A stretch of 32,000 bases of DNA from NCBI GenBank assembly GCA_964551375.1, contig CAZKBG010000001.1, positions 837,329 through 869,328 of the forward strand, written 5' to 3'. The position numbers and the translations under genes are program-made. Below the pieces are notes generated by a model that did no database searches, was not told where the DNA came from, and saw only the letters and a program-made list of their open reading frames with translations. This document shows, in pieces, positions 15,628 through 31,983 of this stretch. Numbering within the stretch: the stretch's first letter is position 1; each line of letters starts with the position of its first letter. The stretch is from an uncultured archaeon. Lineage in GTDB: Archaea > Iainarchaeota > Iainarchaeia > Iainarchaeales > JAAZKV01.

Positions 15628-17514
15628 TTATTTATATTTTGAAAAAATGTTATTGTCTTTGGATAAAAGTCTGGTTGTTTCTGTCCTTACTTCAGCTTTT
15701 AGTTTAAATAGCTTTTTCATGTCCTTACTTATATTTGCAATAGTTTCTTTACTCGGGAGCAAAACAAGTATTTTGCCCAAATCCTCTTCAAGTACTGATG
15801 GGATAGCGGCTCCAATTCTGTATTTTAGCATTTGATTCAAAAATAAATCGGATTTCAAATAGTATAGTAAAAAATAAGGGTCTATTTTAGTTGATTTTAA
15901 AACTCTAAACCCATTTGTGCAAATTGCCCCTGAAAATTCGTTAGTTACAATTGCCGTTGCATGATTTTGTGTGCCGGTTGATACTCCTGCAACTTCAGTT
16001 ATTATTTCATCAGGTTCGAGTTCATATGAGGCACGACTTGGTGCGTCAGCAACTTTGATATTAGTTGCAGAACTTATTTCAGACCCTTCGGAATTTATGT
16101 CAGTAATTTCAACGTAGCGTATTGTGGCCTCGTTGTCTTTAAGTTTTGTTGACTTTTTGGATTTTATTTCAACAAGTTCATTAAGCGGAACAGCTTTTTT
16201 TGATTTTAAATATGAAATTATTTCTTCAAAACGAGGCATGTAAAACTCTGCATCAAGGCGATCTTCAAGTTCACTAAAGTTTTTCAAATAGTACTTATCG
16301 GTGAATTTAAATGAGTCTCCATTTTCAAATTTCTTAAAATGGTTTGTGATTATAGTCATATCTTCATCTAATATTTGAGTCCCGTCTTTGTCAGTTTTGT
16401 ATTTTGGGGTGGCATTTTTATCCCCATAATATCCGACATTTTTAATGATTCCAAAAAAAACTTTGTAGTCTTTACTTTCTTTTTTAGAGTTACTTTTCTG
16501 CAAAAATAAAATTGATGTTTTTATTCCAGTCCCGTGTGGGATAAATGTTTCAGAAGGCATTGAAATAATTCCAAGCACTTTTGTTTTTTTGCGAATGAAA
16601 TCTCTGACAAATTTAGCTGTTTTATTCTCGAGAATTCCATCTGGCAAAACGATTGCAAGTCGCCCACCATCTTTTAGCAAGTTAATGCATCTTTCAATAA
16701 ATAATATTTCTGGGGGTTGTGCTTTATTAAGTGATGAATCATTTTTTGATTGGGCTAATTCAAAGTTCTTTAAATATGTGGGATCTTCAATTTTACCTTG
16801 AATTCCAAACGGTGGATTTGTTAAAACTAAATCATATTCATTTGGGGCTTTGTTTGATGTGAAAAGGGCATTAATATTTTCCAAGCTGTCTCCCAAAATA
16901 ATTTTTGAATTACCATCGCCCTCGAGTACCATTCTAATTTTTGCTAATTTTATTATTGAAGGGCTTATTTCAATTCCGGTGATATTATTTGCTAGCTTAC
17001 TGAATTCTTTGCCTTCTATTTTTTTCATATATCTTAAACTTTGTATTAAAAATCCGCCCGTGCCACAAGCAGGGTCAATTAATTTGAATGAACTTTTTGG
17101 ATTTATGCAATTAACAACTAAATCTATTATTGGGTCAGGGGTTAGAAACTGGCCACGGTCCCCTCGTTGTGTTGAAAAAATAAATTTTTGAAAAGCAATT
17201 CCTTTAACATCATCATCAATTGAACTTAAATTTATGTTGGCAAGTTCTTTCAAAGCATAGGCTAATGTTTTTTCTTTTAGCTTGATTTTATCATTTGACT
17301 CAAATAAAGTTGGATAATCGGAAAGTATGGTTTCAAAAACTTTGTTGGCAGTTGATTCGTTTATTTGTTTGGAGTTTTTATCAGAATAAATTTTAACAAA
17401 GAGAATTTTTGTAAATTCATTTAACGCTTCTTGAGGGGAAAGTCCATCATTGGCATAAATGTGGTTGTGAATTTTGCCAAAAAGTTTAAACAATGTGTTT
17501 GCATCAAAAGACAT
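15628..17514 (-). CDS. N6-adenine DNA methyltransferase (gamma class, HsdM-like) fused to a single HsdS-type target-recognition domain
   Basis: 628-aa ORF. Motif I LIDPACGTGGFL, motif IV VLTNPPFG. The C-terminal ~200 aa resembles one type I specificity TRD (PLNELVEIKSKK...IRYVEITDINSEG...). Confidence 0.9.
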   Translation of the reverse strand: MSFDANTLFKLFGKIHNHIYANDGLSPQEALNEFTKILFVKIYSDKNSKQINESTANKVFETILSDYPTLFESNDKIKLKEKTLAYALKELANINLSSIDDDVKGIAFQKFIFSTQRGDRGQFLTPDPIIDLVVNCINPKSSFKLIDPACGTGGFLIQSLRYMKKIEGKEFSKLANNITGIEISPSIIKLAKIRMVLEGDGNSKIILGDSLENINALFTSNKAPNEYDLVLTNPPFGIQGKIEDPTYLKNFELAQSKNDSSLNKAQPPEILFIERCINLLKDGGRLAIVLPDGILENKTAKFVRDFIRKKTKVLGIISMPSETFIPHGTGIKTSILFLQKSNSKKESKDYKVFFGIIKNVGYYGDKNATPKYKTDKDGTQILDEDMTIITNHFKKFENGDSFKFTDKYYLKNFSELEDRLDAEFYMPRFEEIISYLKSKKAVPLNELVEIKSKKSTKLKDNEATIRYVEITDINSEGSEISSATNIKVADAPSRASYELEPDEIITEVAGVSTGTQNHATAIVTNEFSGAICTNGFRVLKSTKIDPYFLLYYLKSDLFLNQMLKYRIGAAIPSVLEEDLGKILVLLPSKETIANISKDMKKLFKLKAEVRTETTRLLSKDNNIFSKYK

Positions 17515-18594: not shown

Positions 18595-19926
18595 TTGGAG
18601 TTTAAGGTGGTCTATTTGGCAGGATACGAGGATTTTGTGGATTTGGGTTATAAGCCTAATAATAAGGATGTTATTGCGAGTTTTAAGGTGAAGGTGCCTG
18701 AGTGGGAAACTCCTGAAAGGGCATTTGGAGCAGTTGCTTCTGAGAGTTCTGTAGGAACTTGGACTGATTTAGATATTTGGGCAAAATACCCTCATGTGAA
18801 GAAAGTTGCGGGGAAGGTTTACTCAATTGAACACTCGCCAAACGGATACTGGATAAAAATAGCTTACCCTGAAGACCATTTTGAGCAGGCAAATCCAAGC
18901 CAAATACTAGCATCAATTGCTGGAAACGTTTTTGGAATGAAAGCAGTGGACGGACTAAGACTACAAGACATTGAATTTACAAAAACCATGATGAAAGAAT
19001 ACAGAGGACCGCAATTTGGAATAAAAGGAGTAAGAAAAATCTTTGGAGTAGACAAAAGACCACTAATGCTATCAGTTGCTAAGCCAAAAGTTGGAATGAC
19101 TACCGCAGAACACGCGGATATTGGATACCAAATATGGACTGGCGGTTTAGATCTATTAAAAGATGATGAAAACTTAACTAACCAGAAATTTAATCCATTC
19201 AAAAAAAGAGTAACTGCTTCGCTAAAACTAAGAAACAAAGCAGAGAAAGAAACAGGAGAAAGAAAATCATACTTAATTAACGTAACCGCTCCAACAGTGC
19301 AAGAAATGATTGAAAGAGCAAGGTATGTAAAAAAAGAAGGCGGAGAATACGTAATGATTGACATCATTGCGTCAGGATGGACTGCATTAAACAGTTTAAG
19401 AGAAGAATGCGAAGATTTAGGACTTGCAATACACGCGCATAGAGCAATGCACGGCGCAATGACAAGAAACCAAGACCACGGATTCTCAATGAACTGCGTA
19501 TCAAAATTCTCAAGATTAATCGGAGTAGACCAATTACACATTGGAACTGTGTTTGGAAAACTTGTCAGCCCTAAAGAAGAAGTTTTAGAGTGCCAAAAGA
19601 ACTTAACTTTGCCAAAAGTAAAGGCTGATATGACGCACCACTACTTAAACCAAGATTGGGCAAAAATGGAGCAAGTATTCCCAGTATCAAGCGGAGGACT
19701 ACACCCTGGAATTGTGGATAAAATAATGGGACTATTAGGAACTAATATTATGCTGCAGCTTGGCGGAGGAGTGCACGGACACCCGCAAGGAAGCCACGCA
19801 GGAGCTGTTGCAATGAGAGCAGCTGTTGAAGCGGTTCTTGACAAAATTAGCGCTGAAGAAAAAGCAAAAACATGCCCAGAGCTAAAAGTAGCATTAAAAC
19901 AATGGGGACACTCAATGCCAAAATAA
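18595..19926 (+). CDS. rbcL: Ribulose-1,5-bisphosphate carboxylase/oxygenase large subunit, form III (archaeal type)
   Basis: Full-length resemblance to Thermococcus-type RbcL: AVASESSVGTWT, ILASIAGNVFGMK, GGLDLLKDDENL, LAIHAHRAMHGA, VSSGGLHPG, LQLGGGVHGHPQG. Track start is TTG 18595. In-frame GTG 18607 preceded by GGAG is an alternative start. Confidence 0.95.
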   Translation: MEFKVVYLAGYEDFVDLGYKPNNKDVIASFKVKVPEWETPERAFGAVASESSVGTWTDLDIWAKYPHVKKVAGKVYSIEHSPNGYWIKIAYPEDHFEQANPSQILASIAGNVFGMKAVDGLRLQDIEFTKTMMKEYRGPQFGIKGVRKIFGVDKRPLMLSVAKPKVGMTTAEHADIGYQIWTGGLDLLKDDENLTNQKFNPFKKRVTASLKLRNKAEKETGERKSYLINVTAPTVQEMIERARYVKKEGGEYVMIDIIASGWTALNSLREECEDLGLAIHAHRAMHGAMTRNQDHGFSMNCVSKFSRLIGVDQLHIGTVFGKLVSPKEEVLECQKNLTLPKVKADMTHHYLNQDWAKMEQVFPVSSGGLHPGIVDKIMGLLGTNIMLQLGGGVHGHPQGSHAGAVAMRAAVEAVLDKISAEEKAKTCPELKVALKQWGHSMPK

Positions 19927-22781: not shown

Positions 22782-22854
22782 GCCTCTTTCGTCCAGCGGT
22801 CTAGGATTCACCCCTGTCACGGGTGCGACCCGGGTTCAAATCCCGGAGGAGGCG
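22782..22854 (+). tRNA. tRNA-Asp: tRNA-Asp (anticodon GUC)
   Basis: Hand-folded cloverleaf. Acceptor GCCTCTT/AGGAGGC (one G-U), D stem GTCC/GGAT, anticodon stem CACCC/GGGTG with loop CTGTCAC. T arm CCGGG-TTCAAAT-CCCGG, discriminator G. 73 nt, no encoded CCA, no intron. Confidence 0.9.
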
Positions 22855-23797
22855 CTTCAACACATTTTATTGGACAAAAGCTTTGTTTTGGCAACCATTG
22901 TTTTTTTCCTTTAAAGTATATTTCTTTCCATCTTTTTAGTTGAGCTTTTTCAGAGTAGTTGTAAATGACTCCAATAGCGTCTGTTAATTTTTTTTGTTTT
23001 CTAATTATGGAAAAACAAATTTTCTTGTGAAATATTAAGGTGTCTTCAAATTTTAAAGTTTCGACTGAAAATAAGTTTTTTGTTCTTGTTAAAATTCTTC
23101 CATTAATTTTAGAATCTGATTGCCCTATTTTATGGGCAAGACGAAGAGCAGATTTTATTGTGAAAAATCTAATTAGCAAGTTTTGGGTATATTCTAATAA
23201 TTCAAAATTAGTGCTTGCTGCGATGGCAAGCCGGACTCCAAACCTATTGCTTGCTTTAATTATTGGGCAGCCTTCCGAATCAGCCAGTCCTTGAATAAAA
23301 TCGGCTGGAAATACTTCGATTAGCGGCTTTATTAAATCAAAATTAATTTTCGCCGCTCTTACAAATTCATATAGTTCTTTACTTCGGATGTTTGTGTGAA
23401 ACATATTTGGTTTGTGAAAGTGCACTGGATAGTCTGTAGTTTTGTTAAGTATTGTTGTAACGCAATGTGAAAACTTTTCCACAAATTCTTTATCAATTGC
23501 GCCTAGTTGAATGCAATAATCATAGTTGCTTTTGTGAATGCTTATGTTTCCATCTCCAAACATAACGCCCAAAAAGTAGGACATTTCTTGGCTTGGCGCT
23601 ATTTTGAAAGTATTTTTTTGAATTTTTGATAACGGATTGTTTTTCCAATAAGATAAGGTTCCAGTTGAAATAGAAATTCCTTTTTCAAGCAACGTGCGTT
23701 TTATTCTTTTAAATCCAAGTCCTTCTTTAATTAGTTGTTTTATTTGGGATTTAAGCGCTTCTTGTTCACTTCCAGCCAAGTCAGAAAACCGAGTCAT
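22817..23797 (-). CDS. Free-standing double-motif LAGLIDADG homing-endonuclease-like protein with N-terminal HTH
   Basis: 326-aa ORF. Motifs SYFLGVMFGDGNISI and ADFIQGLADSEGCPI lie about 90 aa apart, and both acidic residues are present. N-terminal KEGLGFKRIKRTLLEKGISISTGTLSYW looks HTH-like. The last 38 nt (22817-22854) are antisense to tRNA-Asp. Confidence 0.75.
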   Translation of the reverse strand: MTRFSDLAGSEQEALKSQIKQLIKEGLGFKRIKRTLLEKGISISTGTLSYWKNNPLSKIQKNTFKIAPSQEMSYFLGVMFGDGNISIHKSNYDYCIQLGAIDKEFVEKFSHCVTTILNKTTDYPVHFHKPNMFHTNIRSKELYEFVRAAKINFDLIKPLIEVFPADFIQGLADSEGCPIIKASNRFGVRLAIAASTNFELLEYTQNLLIRFFTIKSALRLAHKIGQSDSKINGRILTRTKNLFSVETLKFEDTLIFHKKICFSIIRKQKKLTDAIGVIYNYSEKAQLKRWKEIYFKGKKQWLPKQSFCPIKCVEAPPPGFEPGSHP

Positions 23798-23896: not shown

Positions 23897-24535
23897 ATGC
23901 AAAAATTAAATTTCTTAGTTCTGATGATAATTGCAATACTCTTAATTCCTACAATAACTCTCGCATTCTGCGGGGACGGAATAATTGAAGATGAAGAAAA
24001 GTGCGATGGCACAAATTTTAACGAAATGACGTGCGAAAATCTTGATAAGGGATATATCGGCGGAGAACTATCATGCACGCTTGACTGTAATTATAATTTG
24101 AGAAAATGCCTTCCGGGAGCTACTGATGAAGAAACTGATCCATCAAAACCAGGCTCTCCGACAACAGGTCCAACATGCGGGGACGGAATTGTTGAAGGAA
24201 AAGAAAAATGCGATTCAATTAATTTAAACCAAAACACCTGCGATAGTTTAGGGTACAACGGCGGAACACTTGCATGCACAGACGGGTGCGTATTTGATTT
24301 GAGCTTATGCGGACAGTTAATTAATCCAAACCCAACCACTCCTGATTTAGTGCAAAAAGACAATGAAGGAAATATAGTTAGAACAATAGGCGAACTTGCA
24401 ATGGAATACCTCCCGCTTGCAGTTGTAGCTGTATTGATTATTTTTGCAATTTATCTGGTGTTGATTACAAGAACCACTGCTGAACAGGAAAAGAAAGAAA
24501 TTTTAGAAGAACTTGAAAGCAAAAGATACAAGTGA
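23897..24535 (+). CDS. Membrane-anchored surface protein with two CGDG-type cysteine-rich repeats
   Basis: Signal peptide. Two ~47-aa repeats: CGDGIIEDEEKCDGTNFNEMTCENLDKGYIGGELSCTLDCNYNLRKC and CGDGIVEGKEKCDSINLNQNTCDSLGYNGGTLACTDGCVFDLSLC (resembles Myxococcus-type/DUF4215 Cys-rich repeat). Pro/Thr linkers and a C-terminal TM (LPLAVVAVLIIFAIYLVLI). Confidence 0.7.
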   Translation: MQKLNFLVLMIIAILLIPTITLAFCGDGIIEDEEKCDGTNFNEMTCENLDKGYIGGELSCTLDCNYNLRKCLPGATDEETDPSKPGSPTTGPTCGDGIVEGKEKCDSINLNQNTCDSLGYNGGTLACTDGCVFDLSLCGQLINPNPTTPDLVQKDNEGNIVRTIGELAMEYLPLAVVAVLIIFAIYLVLITRTTAEQEKKEILEELESKRYK

Positions 24536-24539
24536 GCTC

Positions 24540-25187
24540 TTATAAATTTTCAACAGTATCGCAGAACTGCGAAATTGTGTCAAGCGCGTCCTTATTAGTA
24601 GATTCAGCCGCAAGGAAAACGCCCTGAAGCTTCTGTTCCTTAATCTTCTGCGAAAGAGTATGCAAAAACTTTTCAATAATAACATCTTTATTATAAATTA
24701 AAAGAGTGGTAATTGAATCAACTATCACAAAACCATTTTTTTTGCCGATTCTATCCAGCGCTTTTCCAACTTCAAGGCTTAACTCAATCATATCGCTCGG
24801 TCCGTCAAGATAACTAATCTTATCGCTCTCAATCTCCTTGCCGTTAATCATCTGGGTAACCGCGTCAACAAAATAAATATCATCAGTGGAAATATTCTGA
24901 AGCTTTAATTCCTCATTAATTTCATTAGCGCTCTTATTAACAGTAAGATAAACGCCCGGAAGCCCTCTGTCAACAAAGTACTTCATTATTCTCAAATATT
25001 TTAATTCATGCTGGCTTCTTGGAAGAACAAGAATAACGCTGAACGTCTGCTGGAGATTTCCAAAAATTTCCTTAACCTTTAAATCAATATTTCTGCTTGG
25101 GCTCAATAAATCAAGAACAGCTCTCTCATCAAGCTCTTTTTTTTCTTCAACTGAATTTGGTTTAATGTCATCAGCCACAAAAATCAC
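24540..25187 (-). CDS. RecA/KaiC-like domain protein lacking a P-loop (putative inactive partner)
   Basis: 215-aa ORF. Its GTG start overlaps the upstream stop (GTGA at 25184-25187). GVYLTVNKSANEI occupies the P-loop position and GFVIVDSITTLLIY is a Walker B-like strand. No GxxxxGK[ST]. Confidence 0.55.
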   Translation of the reverse strand: MIFVADDIKPNSVEEKKELDERAVLDLLSPSRNIDLKVKEIFGNLQQTFSVILVLPRSQHELKYLRIMKYFVDRGLPGVYLTVNKSANEINEELKLQNISTDDIYFVDAVTQMINGKEIESDKISYLDGPSDMIELSLEVGKALDRIGKKNGFVIVDSITTLLIYNKDVIIEKFLHTLSQKIKEQKLQGVFLAAESTNKDALDTISQFCDTVENL

Positions 25188-25870
25188 TCATACATTTCCT
25201 GCTTGTCAAGAATTTCAACGCCCTGCTTTGAAATAACAATAGGGTGGGTTTTTTCGCTGATTTTTGTTCCCCTCATTTTAATCACAGCCGCGCTTCGGAC
25301 AAACCTTTCCTTAACTTTCTTGTGGAATAAAACAATCGCTCCGTCAGCAACATACTCTTCAAGCCCGAACAAATCCCCATCTCGGCTGTTTGCTTCATTT
25401 GTAATAATCGCAGTACACCCGCTTTCCTTAAGCATTTTTCCAAGCTCAAGAATTTTCTTTCTTGCTTCAAGCTCCTTAGAAAAGTACAATCTAAAAATAA
25501 CTCCCGGGTCAATTACAATTCTCTTGGCCTTAACTCTCGCAATAGTATCCTCAATAACATCCTTTAACTGGTCAAAATCATACAAATCAATTGTAACAAT
25601 ATCAACCTTCTTTTGCTTTATTAATTCTTCAAAATCCCAGCCAAAAAGAGAGCCTAATTTTAGAATATCCTCTTTAGATTCTTCAAGAGAAACAAAAACG
25701 CCGTTCTCGCCAAATGTCTTTGCGCCGTGATATATAAATTCCATGCAAAAAATAGTTTTTCCAGAGCCCGGATCCCCGCTTACAACTACAAGATTGTTTT
25801 TGGGTACCCCTCCTCCAATAATATTATCCAGCCCCGGAACCCCGCTCTTAATTCTTTCAAGATCAGTCAT
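25184..25870 (-). CDS. Single-domain KaiC-like (ArlH/FlaH-like, RecA-superfamily) ATPase
   Basis: 228-aa ORF. GVPGLDNIIGGGVPKNNLVVVSGDPGSGKTIFCMEFIYHGA (Walker A) and KRIVIDPG (Walker B-like). Size and layout match single-domain KaiC homologues. Confidence 0.85.
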   Translation of the reverse strand: MTDLERIKSGVPGLDNIIGGGVPKNNLVVVSGDPGSGKTIFCMEFIYHGAKTFGENGVFVSLEESKEDILKLGSLFGWDFEELIKQKKVDIVTIDLYDFDQLKDVIEDTIARVKAKRIVIDPGVIFRLYFSKELEARKKILELGKMLKESGCTAIITNEANSRDGDLFGLEEYVADGAIVLFHKKVKERFVRSAAVIKMRGTKISEKTHPIVISKQGVEILDKQEMYE

Positions 25871-25966
25871 TTTATCAGCAATAATTAGAATAGGATTTAT
25901 AAGTTTATAAATGAATAAGCCACTAACTTTTTCCTTTAAAAATGCGGAAAAGCGCGCGAGGAAATC

Positions 25967-25974
25967 TTTATAAA
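25967..25974 (+). promoter_or_regulatory. Candidate TATA box (TTTATAAA) for pilin gene; AGGAGG SD at 26027-26032
   Basis: TATA-like octamer in the 169-bp divergent region between the KaiC-like operon and the pilin gene. A second candidate, TTCTATAT, lies at ~25986-25993. Strong SD 7 nt before ATG 26040. Confidence 0.35.
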
Positions 25975-26039
25975 GAGGTTAAACTTTCTATATTGCAACT
26001 AAGCGTAAAGAGCGCTTAAAAGGGAAAGGAGGTTTATTT

Positions 26040-26477
26040 ATGTTTGATAGAAAAGGACAATCAGCTTTGGAATATCTAATGACTTACGGATGGGCACTAA
26101 TCGTTATTGCTATCGTTATCGGAGTATTAATCTTCGTAACAAGCGGAGCAACAGGCGGTGTAACTTGCCAGTCACAGTCAACAGGAATCCAAGTAACTGA
26201 ATGGGCTGTTAAAGCAGGTTCAGACGGTGTTGGTTTAACACTTAGAAATGCAACTGGAGGAACTATAACTCCAACAGGAGCAGCAGGTGCTGGTGTATTC
26301 ACTGACACTAACAACACAGCATTTTCACTAGTTGTGAGAAACAATACATTCACAGTTCAGGGAATAGACGGACCAATAGCAGGACAGACTTTCTCAACAG
26401 GATACGTTGATGTAAATTACATAACTCAGGGAAATCTAACTGCAACAGCAAGAATTGTTTGCTCAGGAACAGTATAA
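26040..26477 (+). CDS. Archaeal type IV pilin-like protein (class III signal peptide)
   Basis: MFDRKGQSALEYLMTYGWALIVIAIVIGVLIFV has the QxSxExxxL-type prepilin signal (predicted cleavage G|Q). Two Cys (VTCQSQ ... RIVCSG). Followed by a small hairpin and T runs. Confidence 0.8.
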   Translation: MFDRKGQSALEYLMTYGWALIVIAIVIGVLIFVTSGATGGVTCQSQSTGIQVTEWAVKAGSDGVGLTLRNATGGTITPTGAAGAGVFTDTNNTAFSLVVRNNTFTVQGIDGPIAGQTFSTGYVDVNYITQGNLTATARIVCSGTV

Positions 26478-26630
26478 AGTTTTTAACCTCTTAAGCCCAA
26501 AGACTGCCAAAAGCAGTTTTTGGAGCTTCTATTTTTTTAACAGATTTTTATTTTAATGTTGGGCTGCCAGCGTTTTTTTTAAAGCCCTAACTATTAAATA
26601 CTTCAAATAAGTTCATTTGTAAGTGAGATA

Positions 26631-27074
26631 ATGTTTGAAAATAGTGCACAGTCGGCGCTGGAATATTTAACTGCATACGGGTGGGCGCTGATAGTTGTTG
26701 CGCTTATTATTGGAGTATTGATTTTTGTAACAAGCGGGACTACAAGCGGAGTATCCTGCCAAAGCCAGGGTCCTTTTTTTATTGTAAAAGAATGGGTAAT
26801 TAATCCGGGAGCTGGGGGAGTTGGAGTTACTCTCTCAAATGTTACTGGCGGAAATATTAGCTCAATAAGCTCTTACGGCAAAGGAGACTTTGACGGAAAC
26901 GGAATAGTTTCTAATTCATCAGTTTTAAAAAACGGGGAAGTTGTAATACAGGGAATTGATGCGCCTTTAGCAGGGGAAACATTTACAAACGGAAGAATTG
27001 ATATTAATTATGTTACTGAAGGAGGGTTAAATTCCTCAACATACTTAATATGCACAGGATTTCTTCCAGATTAA
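26631..27074 (+). CDS. Archaeal type IV pilin-like protein, paralogue of 26040-26477
   Basis: MFENSAQSALEYLTAYGWALIVVALIIGVLIFV. Shares a C-terminal block with the neighbour (VIQGIDAPLAGETFTNGRIDINYVTEGGL...LICTG vs TVQGIDGPIAGQTFSTGYVDVNYITQGNL...IVCSG). Confidence 0.8.
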   Translation: MFENSAQSALEYLTAYGWALIVVALIIGVLIFVTSGTTSGVSCQSQGPFFIVKEWVINPGAGGVGVTLSNVTGGNISSISSYGKGDFDGNGIVSNSSVLKNGEVVIQGIDAPLAGETFTNGRIDINYVTEGGLNSSTYLICTGFLPD

Positions 27075-27148
27075 TTTCTAAAGTAATCTTCTAAAGAAAA
27101 CCCTCCTTTAAGCAACTCTTTAATACTACTTAATTCATTAATCTCAAA

Positions 27149-27979
27149 ATGAAAAAGGTTGAATTTATTCAAACTCATTCAATAGCCACTGAAAGAAGCT
27201 TGTTTGGCGAAAAGCTTCCCGGTTTTGATTTATACACAGAGCATAAAGGCGCGTTTATTTTCAAACTAAAAGTCCTTTACAGGCACGAACCAAACGGGCC
27301 CTCGGGATGCGTTATAAAGACTTTTTTAATAGGGATAAAAAACGGAAAAATCGAGTGGAGCGGGGAAAAGAAAGACGCTGAATTTGAAAAAAAGATAGAA
27401 AAGCACGCTGAACTAATTACTAAACCAGAGCTTTTGATGGTCAAAGTAATTGATGAAGAAATGGAAGTGCTCTTAGAGGAACAGGAAAAAATAGAAAATG
27501 AAATTGAAAGAATTGAAGCGCTTGTGCTAAAGGGAAAAACAAAGCACACCATGCAGAAAATATTTGTCTCAAAGAAGAATTTAATGAGAATAAGAAATGT
27601 GACAAAAAATTATTTAAGCATATTAGGGATGCTGACAAGAAAAAATGATTACGCTGATTCAGATGCCACAACCCTTTATGAAGAAATACTTCACTTTGAT
27701 GAGATTACTGAAAACCAAAAAGAAGAATTGGCAAGCTTAATTGACGCGCACTTAAACACAGTATCAAATAAAATGAATCAGGTAATGAAAGTTCTCACAA
27801 TAATAACGACTCTTGCTGTCCCATTCACTGCAATTTCAGGAATATTCGGAATGAACATACTTCTCCCAATGCAGGACCATAATTTGGCATTCATATTAGT
27901 AATTTTATTCATGGTTGGATTTGCTGGACTGTTACTAGCTTTATTTTACAAAATGGGCTGGATAGGCGAAAAAGAATAG
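27149..27979 (+). CDS. corA: CorA-family divalent cation transporter (short N-terminal domain)
   Basis: MNQVMKVLTIITTLAVPFTAISGIFGMN (GMN motif) plus a second TM, LAFILVILFMVGFAGLLLALF. Long acidic coiled-coil stalk. 276 aa in total. Confidence 0.8.
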   Translation: MKKVEFIQTHSIATERSLFGEKLPGFDLYTEHKGAFIFKLKVLYRHEPNGPSGCVIKTFLIGIKNGKIEWSGEKKDAEFEKKIEKHAELITKPELLMVKVIDEEMEVLLEEQEKIENEIERIEALVLKGKTKHTMQKIFVSKKNLMRIRNVTKNYLSILGMLTRKNDYADSDATTLYEEILHFDEITENQKEELASLIDAHLNTVSNKMNQVMKVLTIITTLAVPFTAISGIFGMNILLPMQDHNLAFILVILFMVGFAGLLLALFYKMGWIGEKE

Positions 27980-28074
27980 CCAATATCTTCTTCTATAAAA
28001 GTCGGAATTATTTAAGTTGTGTGTTAAAAGTGCGTTGGCTCCTGCGTTGAGTTAGTAATTTTTTTTATTAAAGT

Positions 28075-29088
28075 TTATGCGCCAGCAAGCCCGCCAAAGG
28101 ATATTTGAACTACCACTCTTGTCACAAAGAACAACACAAGCGAGATTATCAAAATCGGCGGGAAGTACTTCATTCCGGCTTTTTCCGTGCCTGAATTAAT
28201 CACTCCAAGGACAAGCGAGGCGAATAAGCTTGTGACAAGCAAATCCACCATGGAGAAAAGCACAATAAAACTTTCTGTAATGTTTGAAGTCGGAATTCCA
28301 ATCAATCCAAGAGCTGGATTTTTTGTTGAATACCCCTGCATTACTTCAGGGTCAAGCCCAATATTTGCAGTCTGCTCGGTCATTACTCCGACAATGAAAC
28401 TGCTGATTCCAAAAAGAGCCGGAGCTCCGCAAGCTGCGGAGAAGAATATTAACATTACATACATCGCAGTGTTTGAATTAACTTCTGATTTTAGCGCGTT
28501 CTCTTCTCTTAAATCACTGCTCAATTGAACAAGAAGCTGGGAAATCTGCCCGCCGTTTTTAATTCCTTCAGAAATAAGCCACATGGTTCTTTCGAGAATT
28601 TTGCTTTTAATGTTTAAAGAAATCTCAAGAAGCGCCCGCTCAAGCCTCTCTCCAACCATTATTTTTTTACTTGCTTTTTTTAATGCAAGACTAAGCGCCC
28701 CAAATTCAGGCCTTGCAGAAACAAACAAACTTCTTTCAGTAGTAAGCCCTGATTTAATATTTGAAGAAACTAATTGAAGCGCGTCAGGAAGGATTTTTTC
28801 AACCTGTGATCCGCGGGAATCAGCCATATTGCTGATCCAAAAAATAGCTCCTGCAAAAATAACAGCAAAAGTAGTAACAAAAGCAACAATTGAGTTTGCC
28901 TGCCCGAGTTTGATTAAATAAAATGACATCATGAACGCAACTATCGCAAGAAGAATTCCTATAAGGAAAATAAACCCAGTGAATTTATCCGCGTCATAAT
29001 CAAGCCCTGCGTACTGGATTTCTTTTCCAATCCACTCCCGCGCATTGCGAGGCAAAAGTCCTGCAGCTCTCTCAAACATTTTAACCAC
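28075..29088 (-). CDS. Type II secretion system F-domain membrane protein (TadC / FlaJ-half-like)
   Basis: 337-aa ORF. A cytoplasmic T2SSF-type helical domain (LPDALQLVSSNIKSGLTTERSLF...LISEGIKNGGQISQLLVQLSSDL) is flanked by TM segments. Overlaps the upstream gene by 8 nt. Confidence 0.8.
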   Translation of the reverse strand: MVKMFERAAGLLPRNAREWIGKEIQYAGLDYDADKFTGFIFLIGILLAIVAFMMSFYLIKLGQANSIVAFVTTFAVIFAGAIFWISNMADSRGSQVEKILPDALQLVSSNIKSGLTTERSLFVSARPEFGALSLALKKASKKIMVGERLERALLEISLNIKSKILERTMWLISEGIKNGGQISQLLVQLSSDLREENALKSEVNSNTAMYVMLIFFSAACGAPALFGISSFIVGVMTEQTANIGLDPEVMQGYSTKNPALGLIGIPTSNITESFIVLFSMVDLLVTSLFASLVLGVINSGTEKAGMKYFPPILIISLVLFFVTRVVVQISFGGLAGA

Positions 29089-29998
29089 TCATTAGGTTTG
29101 GTCTTTTAGACTTCATAATACCTACAAACATGAATTCCACTATAATTAATCCGCCAAGCATTCCCCAAAACATCATTTCGGTTATCTGCATTTTAGGAAA
29201 TGAGCCAATAACTATCAAAAATGTAACTCCCAAAGCTGGAATAATTACTCCAATCATCAGGTAGACTAGTGAAAGCATTTTGAGACTGTTGCCGTATTTT
29301 TGAATCTCAATCTGCTGTTCTCTTGTAATAGAAGCAACGCTTTCGGTTAAAACATCATTAACATCCGCGCCTGCCTTCATTCCATTAACAATCTGCCAAA
29401 GAACTTTTCTTAAGTAAGGGCTCGGATTCTTTACCGCAAGCTCCTGAAGAGCAATTTCTTCGCTAACTCCAGTGCTGATGCTGTCAACCGCTTCTTTAAG
29501 CTCTGCGCTTAACTGCCCGTATCTTTTAGTTGAAGAAATCATGTATAATGAATCAAAAAGACTTACTCTGCTCCTGATTTGAACAAGCATGGTTCTTAAT
29601 GCAAAAACAATATTTTTTTCAATATCCCTGATTCTTTTCTTTGTTTTAATATTAGGATACGCGTACATTTGAAAGAATACCAAAAGCCCGACTACAAATC
29701 CAATAAAAATTCCAAGAAGAATGTAATGAGGGATAAGAATTGAGCCTATTTTTGTGGAAGAAGTCACAAATTTTCCCAAAAGAAAAACCATTACCCCGCT
29801 TAGAATAATAAAATAAAAGAAAAAACTAAACGCCATCACAGCGCCGTACTCTTCAACAGAAATTTTAATCCCCGCTGTGTATAAATCTTTTTCCAAATTA
29901 GGAAACATTTTTGAAACTCTATAGCCAAGCCCCTCAAAAGGCTCTGCTATTTTTCTCATCGCTTGCAGCGGCATCGGAGCAAAAGGAATCATTTCCAT
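29081..29998 (-). CDS. Type II secretion system F-domain membrane protein (TadB / FlaJ-half-like)
   Basis: 305-aa ORF. T2SSF-type domain (ALRTMLVQIRSRVSLFDSLYMIS...WQIVNGMKAGADVNDVLTESVASI) and TM segments. Starts 1 nt after the ATPase stop. Confidence 0.8.
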   Translation of the reverse strand: MEMIPFAPMPLQAMRKIAEPFEGLGYRVSKMFPNLEKDLYTAGIKISVEEYGAVMAFSFFFYFIILSGVMVFLLGKFVTSSTKIGSILIPHYILLGIFIGFVVGLLVFFQMYAYPNIKTKKRIRDIEKNIVFALRTMLVQIRSRVSLFDSLYMISSTKRYGQLSAELKEAVDSISTGVSEEIALQELAVKNPSPYLRKVLWQIVNGMKAGADVNDVLTESVASITREQQIEIQKYGNSLKMLSLVYLMIGVIIPALGVTFLIVIGSFPKMQITEMMFWGMLGGLIIVEFMFVGIMKSKRPNLMSG

Positions 29999-29999
29999 C

Positions 30000-31568
30000 C
30001 TATTCCTCCATCAGCTTATTTTTTTCCACTGCTCTTGTAACCACGTCTCTGTCCTTATAGTATTGCGCGATTACTTTTCCAACAGAATTAAGGTCATTAA
30101 TATTTTTATCAACCATCCATTCAAGGATTTTCTGCTTCTCTTGCAGTTCGTCAAGCACTTCATTTTTGCTTAATCCAGTGTGAAGGGATAATTCATCAAA
30201 TAATCTTGTGCTCTCGTTGTGTCTTGCAATTTTATCGTCCCCGCTTCTCCACCTGTAAAGCACATTTGCTCTAACACTTTCTTCTCCAGTTCCGTGCTTT
30301 TCTAAAATAAATTCTCCGACCTGAAGAACTCTTCTAACGCCAAGTCTTCTGTTTCTAAACATTACAACATTTAAGTGAACAGTGTCAAGCATGCTCTGGG
30401 GAATATTGATTGGAGGATTTGTTAATCTCCTGATTGTTTCATCAGCAGTATTTGCGTGAAGAGTGGAATAAACACTGTGCCCAGTGTGCATTGCTTCAAA
30501 CATTACTTCCGCTTCTTTTCTTCTTCTAATTTCCCCAACAATTATACGGTCAGGTCTCATTCTTAATGAATTCACAAGAAGATCAAGCATTGAAATTTTT
30601 CCCTTCCCTTCAGGATTAGCTTCCCTTGTAGTCATTGGCACATAGTGCATGAATTCAGGAGGGCGAAGTTCCCTTGTGTCTTCAATACTTAAAACACGAT
30701 GATTCGGCTGAATAAACGGCAGGCACACACCAAGAATGGTTGTTTTTCCTGAAGCTGTTCCTCCGGAGAAGATAATATTTAATTCATATTCCATTGCTTC
30801 CCACAAAAGCGCCATTACTTCAGAAGAAACTGTATTGCTTCGAATTAAGTCAGTCACAGTCCAAGGGTCTCTTCTAAATCTTCTAATAGTAAGAGTGTTA
30901 CCGTCATTTGAAATAGGGAAAAGAGTTGCATTAACACGATCTCCAGTAGTCAAGTGCGCATCAAGAAGAGGCTCAAGAGTTGTAATCTGCTTTCCAACTC
31001 TTCTTGCAATAATACTGCCGTAATTATGAATATCATCTTCTGAGCCAAGGTAAATATTAGTCTTTAACCAGCCGTACTTTTTATGATAAACCCAAACAGG
31101 GTCCTTGCTTTTATTTACGACAATTTCTTCTAAATTCGCATCGGCAAGAATCATTTCCATTTTTCCCAAACCAAGCATTTCCTGCAAAAGAAAACCTATA
31201 AGCGAATTTTTTGTTTCCTTAGTCGCAGTAGGAAGCTCAACTGAAATAATAGAATCAGCTCTTTTTCTGAACCTGTCCTTTAAAGCGTCAACAAAATGCT
31301 GGTCGATTAAAGAATCCGCCTTGATTGAAGCCTCTGAAATTATTGAATTCTTTATTTCCCTCATCAAAGCATGAGTTCCTTCCCCAAAATCAGGAAGGCT
31401 CAAAAAGTACTCATTTACATAAGCTTTTTTTCTTTCAACAATCCTTACATCAGCGCTTACTTCATCAGCAGTTACTTTATAGAGCTCAACTAAGTTAAAC
31501 TCATCAAGCATCTTGTCCGATGACCACTTTCCCCTTACTTCAACCATTGTTTCACCAATATTATCCAA
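30000..31568 (-). CDS. FlaI/PilB-type type IV pilus (type II/IV secretion) assembly ATPase
   Basis: 522-aa ORF. Walker A FSGGTASGKTT, LSIEDTRELR, Walker B region RIIVGEIR, His box EAMHTGHSVYSTLHA. N-terminal domain typical of archaeal FlaI-like ATPases. Confidence 0.9.
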   Translation of the reverse strand: MDNIGETMVEVRGKWSSDKMLDEFNLVELYKVTADEVSADVRIVERKKAYVNEYFLSLPDFGEGTHALMREIKNSIISEASIKADSLIDQHFVDALKDRFRKRADSIISVELPTATKETKNSLIGFLLQEMLGLGKMEMILADANLEEIVVNKSKDPVWVYHKKYGWLKTNIYLGSEDDIHNYGSIIARRVGKQITTLEPLLDAHLTTGDRVNATLFPISNDGNTLTIRRFRRDPWTVTDLIRSNTVSSEVMALLWEAMEYELNIIFSGGTASGKTTILGVCLPFIQPNHRVLSIEDTRELRPPEFMHYVPMTTREANPEGKGKISMLDLLVNSLRMRPDRIIVGEIRRRKEAEVMFEAMHTGHSVYSTLHANTADETIRRLTNPPINIPQSMLDTVHLNVVMFRNRRLGVRRVLQVGEFILEKHGTGEESVRANVLYRWRSGDDKIARHNESTRLFDELSLHTGLSKNEVLDELQEKQKILEWMVDKNINDLNSVGKVIAQYYKDRDVVTRAVEKNKLMEE

Positions 31569-31575
31569 AATTAAA

Positions 31576-31983
31576 TTACTTTGCCATATCTTCGTTTAAA
31601 TCCTCATCGCTTAACTGTTCGCCCCTTCTAATCATTTCCCTTCTTTTTTTTGCTTTCTCAAACTCAGCGCTTATTAACTTAGGAGAGCCGAAAAGAGGGT
31701 ACTCAATTCTAACCGAGCCAGCTTTTTCAAGAGTCAAATAACATTCCCTCAACTTTGAGCCGTCCATTTTCAAATCCTTTCTCAACTTGCCTGCATTAAT
31801 AATTCCCGCTTCATTAATTGCCCGAAGAACCTTGTCAAAATCCGTTATAACGCATGGATTTTTCAAGTCAGTTTCGCAAAGAGTATTTTTTTTGCGCTTA
31901 TCCGGAGCGGTAATCATTACAGGCTTTGAAATATCCTCGATATTTTCATCATCTTTTTCTTTTTTAGTCATTTTAATCAGCAA
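31576..31983 (-). CDS. Small acidic/basic protein with probable winged-helix domain, first gene of pilus operon
   Basis: 135-aa ORF ending 7 nt upstream of the ATPase. ITDFDKVLRAINEAGIINAGKLRKDLKMDGSKLRECYLTLEKAGSVRIEYP looks wHTH-like. The likely start is the internal ATG (MTKKEKDD, 31971). Confidence 0.5.
   Translation of the reverse strand: MLIKMTKKEKDDENIEDISKPVMITAPDKRKKNTLCETDLKNPCVITDFDKVLRAINEAGIINAGKLRKDLKMDGSKLRECYLTLEKAGSVRIEYPLFGSPKLISAEFEKAKKRREMIRRGEQLSDEDLNEDMAK

Follow-up and report, generated by a model that had tools for sequence, protein, structure and literature searches.

The window analysed here is a 32,000-nt stretch (G000:C1:837329-869328) of the 1.09-Mb, 93%-complete genome of an archaeon of the Iainarchaeota (Diapherotrites, DPANN), and its last genes belong to a locus for a non-archaellum type IV pilus. 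This locus is the standard pilus cluster of the Iainarchaeota and provides a clean, quantified example of a KaiC-family ATPase (KaiC228) and a dead KaiC partner (an inactivated KaiC, iKaiC) that are inherited and duplicated together with a pilus machine. We lean, if only slightly, towards the reading that the pilus is an adhesive one of the archaeal clade 2 type, gated by its cognate KaiC/iKaiC switch, which would act directly on the motor formed by the assembly ATPase and a small winged helix-turn-helix (wHTH) protein.

Most DPANN archaea have not been cultured, and they need contact with other cells or surfaces, which makes pili prime candidates for their attachment organelles. Work on the switching of archaeal filaments has to date been confined to the archaellum (ArlH, CirA). 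The KaiC pair and the winged-helix domain described below, which is either encoded beside the motor ATPase or part of the same protein, together offer concrete and testable partners for the switching of archaeal pili.

Gene identities were assigned from the listing of open reading frames together with Pfam and NCBIfam scans, and folds from AlphaFold2 (AF2) models compared by Foldseek. Coordinates without a prefix are positions in the window, while those beginning with C1 refer to the contig.

The pilus machine

All nine genes that the original prediction had read from this DNA were recovered by the open reading frame listing and the Pfam and NCBIfam scans. They do not make up the complete locus, as had been thought, which runs about 4.6 kb beyond the 3' end of the window into five further pilin-like genes. 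The minus-strand operon is as tightly packed as described, with gaps or overlaps of 1-8 nt: the ATPase gene is separated by 7 nt from the wHTH gene upstream and by 1 nt from the adjoining T2SSF gene, and the two T2SSF genes overlap by 8 nt.

The pilus assembly ATPase (522 aa; 30000-31568, minus strand) carries a T2SSE domain (PF00437, 5e-35) and shows a weak Pfam match to PilB3_C. Compared with structures in PDB, it scores highest against AfGspE (2OAP, 235 bits, 1e-68), followed by FlaI (188 bits) and CpaF (162 bits), and it reaches 293.5 bits against the NCBIfam model of FlaI/ArlI, where the cut-off is 550. Going by this ranking of scores, the ATPase appears closest to AfGspE and hence clade 2-like, AfGspE (AF0659, 2OAP) being labelled as clade 2, arCOG01817, in Figure S4 of Makarova et al., 2016 (PMC4858521). 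The original notion of a "mosaic" system is at odds with this result. The orthologous pilus ATPase of one relative (G032; L028:6477-10211, minus strand) is 1244 aa long, more than twice the normal size, and could hold an intein or a fusion.

Two proteins with one T2SSF domain each represent the platform. The 305-aa protein (29081-29998, minus strand; PF00482, 1.4e-13) aligns with positions 38-249 of the 555 of the ArlJ model and 55-227 of the 484 of the UpsF model, and the 337-aa protein (28075-29088, minus strand; PF00482, 1.4e-11) with positions 264-481 of the same 484 of UpsF. Since the two match the N- and C-terminal halves of archaeal ArlJ/UpsF, the pair resembles an archaeal two-domain platform divided over two genes and not a bacterial import, and acquisition of a bacterial Tad system was ruled out on these grounds. 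The split had been taken for a bacterial Tad trait. Two tadC-like genes are, however, common in archaeal clades 1, 2 and 4B (Makarova, Koonin and Albers, 2016; PMC4858521), and all five loci of this genome that combine an ATPase with two T2SSF genes have a split platform. Bacterial Tad/Flp systems (CpaF/TadA, TadB, TadC) likewise have two single-domain platform genes after the ATPase gene, but the ATPase found here is less like CpaF than like archaeal ATPases and the platform halves follow the N-then-C order of ArlJ/UpsF. General scans matched no gene of the locus to a secretin (RcpA), TadZ/CpaE or a Flp-type pilin; no separate search for Flp (PF04964) was made.

The 135-aa protein at the head of the four-gene minus-strand operon (31576-31983, minus strand) has no Pfam match. 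Its AF2 model, built from 28 homologues, contains a winged helix at residues 45-120 (H-S-H-H-S-S-H, with H for helix and S for strand; pLDDT of about 95), for which Foldseek returned wHTH proteins only (MarR, ArsR, TFE-alpha, AspA), in keeping with the original assignment. In 27 related loci the domain is encoded ahead of the ATPase, which it always precedes, and it is fused to the N-terminus of paralogous ATPases, namely AR10 (626 aa, E of about 1e-8) and an 802-aa ATPase of the genome itself (E of 0.003). This fusion implies that the wHTH protein is a physical partner of the motor.

On the plus strand, two tandem paralogues are, by their N-termini, class III signal-peptide pilins, as had been recognized before. 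Pilin 1 (145 aa; 26040-26477) begins with MFDRKG and pilin 2 (147 aa; 26631-27074) with MFENSA, in both cases followed, after the predicted cleavage site, by QSALEYL and a hydrophobic helix. Pilin 1 has the Glu at +5 and two conserved Cys, and the two predicted major pilins share 50% identity. Pilin 1 has a paralogue in a second pilus locus of the genome (locus D, see below) and orthologues that adjoin KaiC in related loci. The second pilin is also present in one related locus (L044), and most relatives have a single pilin.

The genes beyond the window end are five co-oriented pilin-like genes of 322, 760, 170, 126 and 138 aa, situated directly upstream of the wHTH gene (C1:869381-873896, equivalent to L127:182-4697). 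They show a weak Class_IIIsignal match, and the five-gene set is kept in relatives as well as in loci D and E of the same genome. The 760-aa protein contains a vWA domain (8e-22) and is probably the tip adhesin. Two matches to prepilin peptidase (PF01478) were found outside the locus, at C1:639147 and C1:697063. The genome thus holds what characterizes an archaeal type IV pilus: a GspE-family ATPase, T2SSF platforms, predicted class III pilins and a prepilin peptidase.

The archaellum can be set aside, as in the original prediction, which had read the locus as encoding a type IV pilus other than the archaellum in a DPANN-type cell. Archaellin (PF01917) had no match in the 93%-complete genome, nor did any protein of the genome score above the cut-off for ArlH. 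The subunits are of the pilin type, and no gene of the locus matched ArlF/G, ArlC/D/E or ArlX in the Pfam and NCBIfam scans; the lack of ArlF/G/C/D/E had also been noticed earlier. A hybrid of pilus and archaellum was rejected because neither archaellin nor ArlH was found.

The locus instead largely falls into an already described pilus family, an outcome that the original prediction had named as counting against its novelty. It shares with the clade 2 pili, which are PilA-based and of the euryarchaeal type (PilB3/PilC3 of H. volcanii; AfGspE), two tadC-like genes, small PilA-like pilins, KaiC neighbours and vWA proteins, and its ATPase is, by score, most similar to AfGspE. In addition, it has a fixed KaiC plus iKaiC pair, a wHTH gene adjoining the ATPase gene and a five-gene minor-pilin set in one block, and this block is present in triplicate in a 1.09-Mb genome. 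Pilus islands of DPANN archaea have been reported (Makarova et al., 2019; PMC6393860). The Tad-like clusters of Nanohaloarchaeota (Xie et al., 2022; PMC9563170) are alike in having a TadA-like ATPase, separate TadB/TadC-like genes and two genes annotated as kaiC, and they contain no prepilin peptidase, which is likewise encoded elsewhere in our genome. They belong to a different phylum; the second "kaiC" is here a P-loop-less DUF7504 protein and the linkage is quantified. KaiC ATPases are also known beside clade 2 and 4B pili, where the association was predicted to be regulatory (Makarova et al., 2016; PMC4858521). KaiC can therefore not be regarded as a partner of the archaellum only, as had been assumed. 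The association of KaiC with pili and the split platform are both already published, and the current picture is unchanged in these respects.

KaiC228, iKaiC and their linkage to the pilus

KaiC228 (228 aa; 25184-25870, minus strand) is, judged by its motifs and matches, a classical single-domain KaiC with intact catalytic motifs, and it is not ArlH. It matches PF06745 at 7e-62 (209 bits, cut-off 26.6) and, among PDB entries, KaiC CI at 2e-60 followed by PH0186, PH0284 and SSO2452; FlaH is absent from the matches within 1e-5. Against the NCBIfam model of ArlH it reaches 49.6 bits, far from the cut-off of 215, which speaks against the "ArlH-like" module proposed originally. The protein has the RecA-like domain with Walker A, catalytic Glu pair, Walker B and Arg finger that define the KaiC family, and the motifs GDPGSGKT (Walker A), SLEE (Glu pair) and KMRG are invariant in 14 orthologues. 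It stays below the NCBIfam cut-offs of the KaiC equivalogs and, with its one domain, is not of the type found in the cyanobacterial KaiABC clock, where KaiC has two domains and works with KaiB (and KaiA).

The gene of the 215-aa protein (24540-25187, minus strand) follows directly, its GTG start overlapping the KaiC stop by 4 nt. The protein matches DUF7504 (37.4 bits, cut-off 27) and, weakly, KaiC. Among 55 orthologues, 52 match DUF7504, 10 match DUF835 and some match Elongator Iki1. The AF2 model (pLDDT 92.9) finds PH0284 (2DR3), FlaH (4YDS) and KaiC as its top Foldseek matches. Walker A (GxxxxGK[ST]) is present in none of the 55 orthologues and no conserved Arg/Lys finger was seen in them. 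By sequence and model, the protein thus shows the characters of an inactivated KaiC of the DUF7504/DUF835 group, i.e., a predicted KaiC/RecA fold devoid of the P-loop; iKaiC domains were defined by Galperin et al., 2018. The original pairing of a KaiC-like ATPase with a P-loop-less paralogue is in this way borne out.

The resemblance to ArlH-ArlI-ArlJ of the archaellum lies in a single-domain protein of RecA/KaiC fold whose gene accompanies those of a FlaI-family ATPase and a T2SSF platform, and in the likeness of the iKaiC model to FlaH (4YDS). The differences are the split platform, an ATPase below the ArlI cut-off and a KaiC228 that retains the catalytic glutamates and resembles clock KaiC CI far more than ArlH.

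A coiled-coil protein of about 440-450 aa, which has no Pfam match, is encoded, in convergent orientation, immediately behind KaiC-iKaiC in 34 of 55 related loci (e.g., L026:18443-19813 and L029:18358-19674, both on the minus strand). The homologue in our genome (C1:743889-745217) lies about 117 kb away. This protein is a candidate for a third partner in the KaiC module.

There is good support for a link of the KaiC pair to the pilus. Orthologues of KaiC228 (at least 54% identity, with paralogues at no more than 43%) occur in 16 of 40 relatives, and the orthologue family extends to 110 of the 215 genomes of the phylum. The survey of block recurrence that the original prediction had called for covered 80 orthologue loci, each taken with no more than 10 kb of flanking DNA and annotated by BLAST against the proteins of the window. 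The KaiC reading frame was called in 74 of them, of which 30 have too short a context to judge linkage. ATPase and/or platform genes lie within 10 kb of KaiC in 40 of the 44 assessable loci, the median distance being 1.5 kb; they are missing from the other 4, which offer at least 8 kb of context on either side. In 56 of 71 loci, iKaiC is the next gene after KaiC. The linkage is kept through at least two gene orders; with w for the wHTH gene, E for the ATPase, F1 and F2 for the platform genes, P for the pilin, K and iK for the KaiC pair and arrowheads for strand, these are w E F1 F2 P< K> iK> and iK< P< K> F2< F1< E< w<. No gene stays nearer to KaiC, or more constantly beside it, than the divergent major pilin gene, and the arrangement P< K> is retained even in rearranged loci. 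In several lineages of the Iainarchaeota, genes of coenzyme A synthesis (a PPAT-like cytidylyltransferase and the dephospho-CoA kinase CoaE) are found between pilin and KaiC, for example at L027:11354-12593. These insertions, together with that of CorA discussed below, indicate that the locus tolerates housekeeping genes.

Recurrence within the genome points the same way. Among its five loci with an ATPase and two T2SSF genes, the full block of minor pilins, wHTH, ATPase, two platform genes, opposite-strand pilin, KaiC and iKaiC occurs three times: as locus C in the window, as locus D (C1:456952-469046) and as locus E (C1:419807-432705). Proteins of these copies are 30-52% identical; the D-type paralogue of the C-type ATPase (52% identity) overlaps the range of orthologue identities (54-79%). 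The trees of KaiC and ATPase both pair C with D (support of 1.0 and 0.88, respectively), and KaiC genes that neighbour E-type pili group in a separate clade (0.999). Three unlinked KaiC paralogues branch between C+D and E, so that the congruence between KaiC and pilus trees is only partial. As read from these trees and gene orders, the KaiC pair is duplicated together with the pilus block within the genome, and the earlier proposal that the pair is tied to the locus holds. In locus D, an operon of KaiC, two receiver (REC) genes and iKaiC is followed by two large genes (C1:456952-459108, equivalent to L128:953-3109). The two receiver-domain genes between KaiC and iKaiC suggest signal transduction, in which a pilus-linked KaiC pair takes signalling input of the two-component kind.

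Possible modes of action of the KaiC pair

Based on these data, we posit that the AfGspE-like ATPase and its small winged-helix partner would power the assembly of the pilus, on a platform in which two half-size TadC/ArlJ-like proteins would pair as a heterodimer. The fibre would consist of one or two major pilins, and the five upstream pilin-like proteins, one with a vWA adhesin domain, may act as the priming or tip complex of a putatively adhesive filament. Intact KaiC and the translationally coupled, P-loop-less iKaiC would form a heteromer that serves as a locus-specific signalling switch, in which the iKaiC adaptor would read the nucleotide or phosphorylation state of the KaiC ring and decide whether the pilus is made or active. 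The output that we prefer is post-translational, namely nucleotide-dependent binding to the ATPase/wHTH motor, as ArlH binds ArlI. What the data show are the identities of the genes, the folds, the conserved linkage and the co-duplication; we infer the heteromer, the adhesive function, and in which direction and on what target the regulation works.

The precedent is an interaction between ArlH and ArlI that depends on nucleotide binding, with ArlH lacking detectable ATPase activity (PMC5019145). We favour direct action on the motor because of this precedent, the threefold recurrence of the block, the linkage across the phylum, the co-duplication, the receivers of locus D and the fusion of wHTH domain and ATPase. 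Several points weigh against it. KaiC228 is no orthologue of ArlH and, unlike ArlH, keeps the catalytic Glu pair, so that the mode of action may differ. Pilus genes are missing from 4 of the 44 assessable loci, and other KaiC/iKaiC paralogues of the genome are found away from pili. The constant divergent pilin neighbour of KaiC, moreover, fits transcriptional control equally well.

Such control is possible, and we hold it as a tentative alternative: KaiC/iKaiC would switch the transcription of the divergent pilin gene(s), and possibly of the motor operon, perhaps via the wHTH protein that the locus encodes. A precedent is CirA of Haloferax volcanii, a KaiC-like protein encoded divergently from the arl genes, whose transcription it lowers (PMC10983859). 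CirA resembles the present case in being a KaiC-family gene divergent from type IV filament genes and in its regulatory role; it regulates the archaellum and cell shape, and no iKaiC partner has been described for it. KaiC and pilin 1 share a divergent intergenic region of 169 nt (25871-26039) with two A/T-rich TATA-like boxes, and an alignment with three same-genus loci keeps the boxes TTTATAAA/TTTAAAAA on each side of this region, where we infer that they serve as promoters. The same alignment revealed no conserved operator-like motif beyond the TATA-like boxes, which argues against this alternative. A scan for sigma-70 promoters and terminators, which is ill-suited to archaea, gave counts no higher than in shuffled sequence. 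KaiC itself lacks a DNA-binding domain, and the fusion of the wHTH domain to the ATPase N-terminus in paralogues argues for a partner of the motor rather than a free DNA-binding regulator.

We consider it improbable that the KaiC pair serves general signalling or housekeeping and only happens to lie beside the pilus genes, with no specific role in the pilus. The small genome contains 12 KaiC-family matches, including the several KaiC/iKaiC genes away from pili, which together with the four orthologue loci devoid of pilus genes and the CoaE and PPAT-like genes between pilin and KaiC in some lineages would suit a mere neighbour. The linkage in the remaining assessable loci, however, holds across many families and rearrangements, loci C and D were duplicated as blocks that include the pair, and each pilus paralogue has its own KaiC clade.

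Least probable is that the filament mainly serves DNA or nutrient uptake or retraction instead of adhesion, with the KaiC module supplying the control of retraction in the absence of PilT: pilus-mediated DNA import has been speculated for DPANN archaea (PMC9563170), a PilT-type ATPase is not expected in archaea (PMC4858521), and the reduced genome and the RuBisCO large-subunit gene in the window would suit uptake, but a ComEC-like channel was not detected in the genome, which is 93% complete, the pilin with the vWA domain speaks for adhesion and no sequence feature shows retraction.

The preferred reading of a switch that acts on the motor can be taken further, though this extension is doubtful. 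Each Iainarchaeal pilus would then have its own KaiC/iKaiC heteromer docked on the ATPase/wHTH motor as a structural, ArlH-like part. If this were true, the arrangement of ArlH and ArlI would be older than the archaellum and would go back to a clade 2-type pilus, from which it was inherited, and the cognate, motor-docked KaiC/iKaiC would be a candidate switch between extension and retraction where PilT is lacking.

CorA and other genes of the window

Between the pilins and the platform genes lies a gene for a short CorA Mg2+/Co2+ channel (276 aa; 27149-27979, plus strand). The protein has the CorA domain (PF01544, 2.4e-34, 119 bits) and the GMN motif and is assigned to the CorA transporters, a family with two C-terminal transmembrane helices; it scores below the TIGR00383 equivalog cut-off and its N-terminal domain is short. 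The presence of CorA in the locus had been noted correctly, but its listing among the pilus components did not stand, since BLAST annotation found it in 0 of the 80 related loci. The order pilin-pilin-CorA-T2SSF is shared by the closest relative alone (G004, 82% identity), and the next-best CorA (38% identity) is located elsewhere. By this distribution, CorA is a recent, species-level insertion. As judged from gene content, CorA is a passenger gene that lies physically inside the locus and is not a component of the pilus, and a role as a Mg2+-sensing part of the pilus system was rejected on the same grounds.

Convergent with iKaiC is a gene (23897-24535, plus strand) for a 212-aa secreted protein with two six-Cys repeats (CGDG...C) and a C-terminal transmembrane anchor. 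A homologue is found beside iKaiC in one same-genus relative (L042). The protein recalls the Cys-rich, C-terminally anchored, S-layer-like proteins listed in pilus loci by Makarova et al., 2016 (PMC4858521). Next to it, a 326-aa protein with a weak LAGLIDADG domain (22817-23797, minus strand) adjoins the KaiC pair in same-genus relatives too. Farther upstream, the window encodes a 628-aa N6-adenine DNA methylase of the Eco57I/MmeI-like type (15628-17514, minus strand). The RuBisCO large-subunit gene (18595-19926, plus strand; PF00016, 8e-88) is presumably of form III and involved in nucleotide salvage, to which this type of RuBisCO gene is linked in DPANN archaea.

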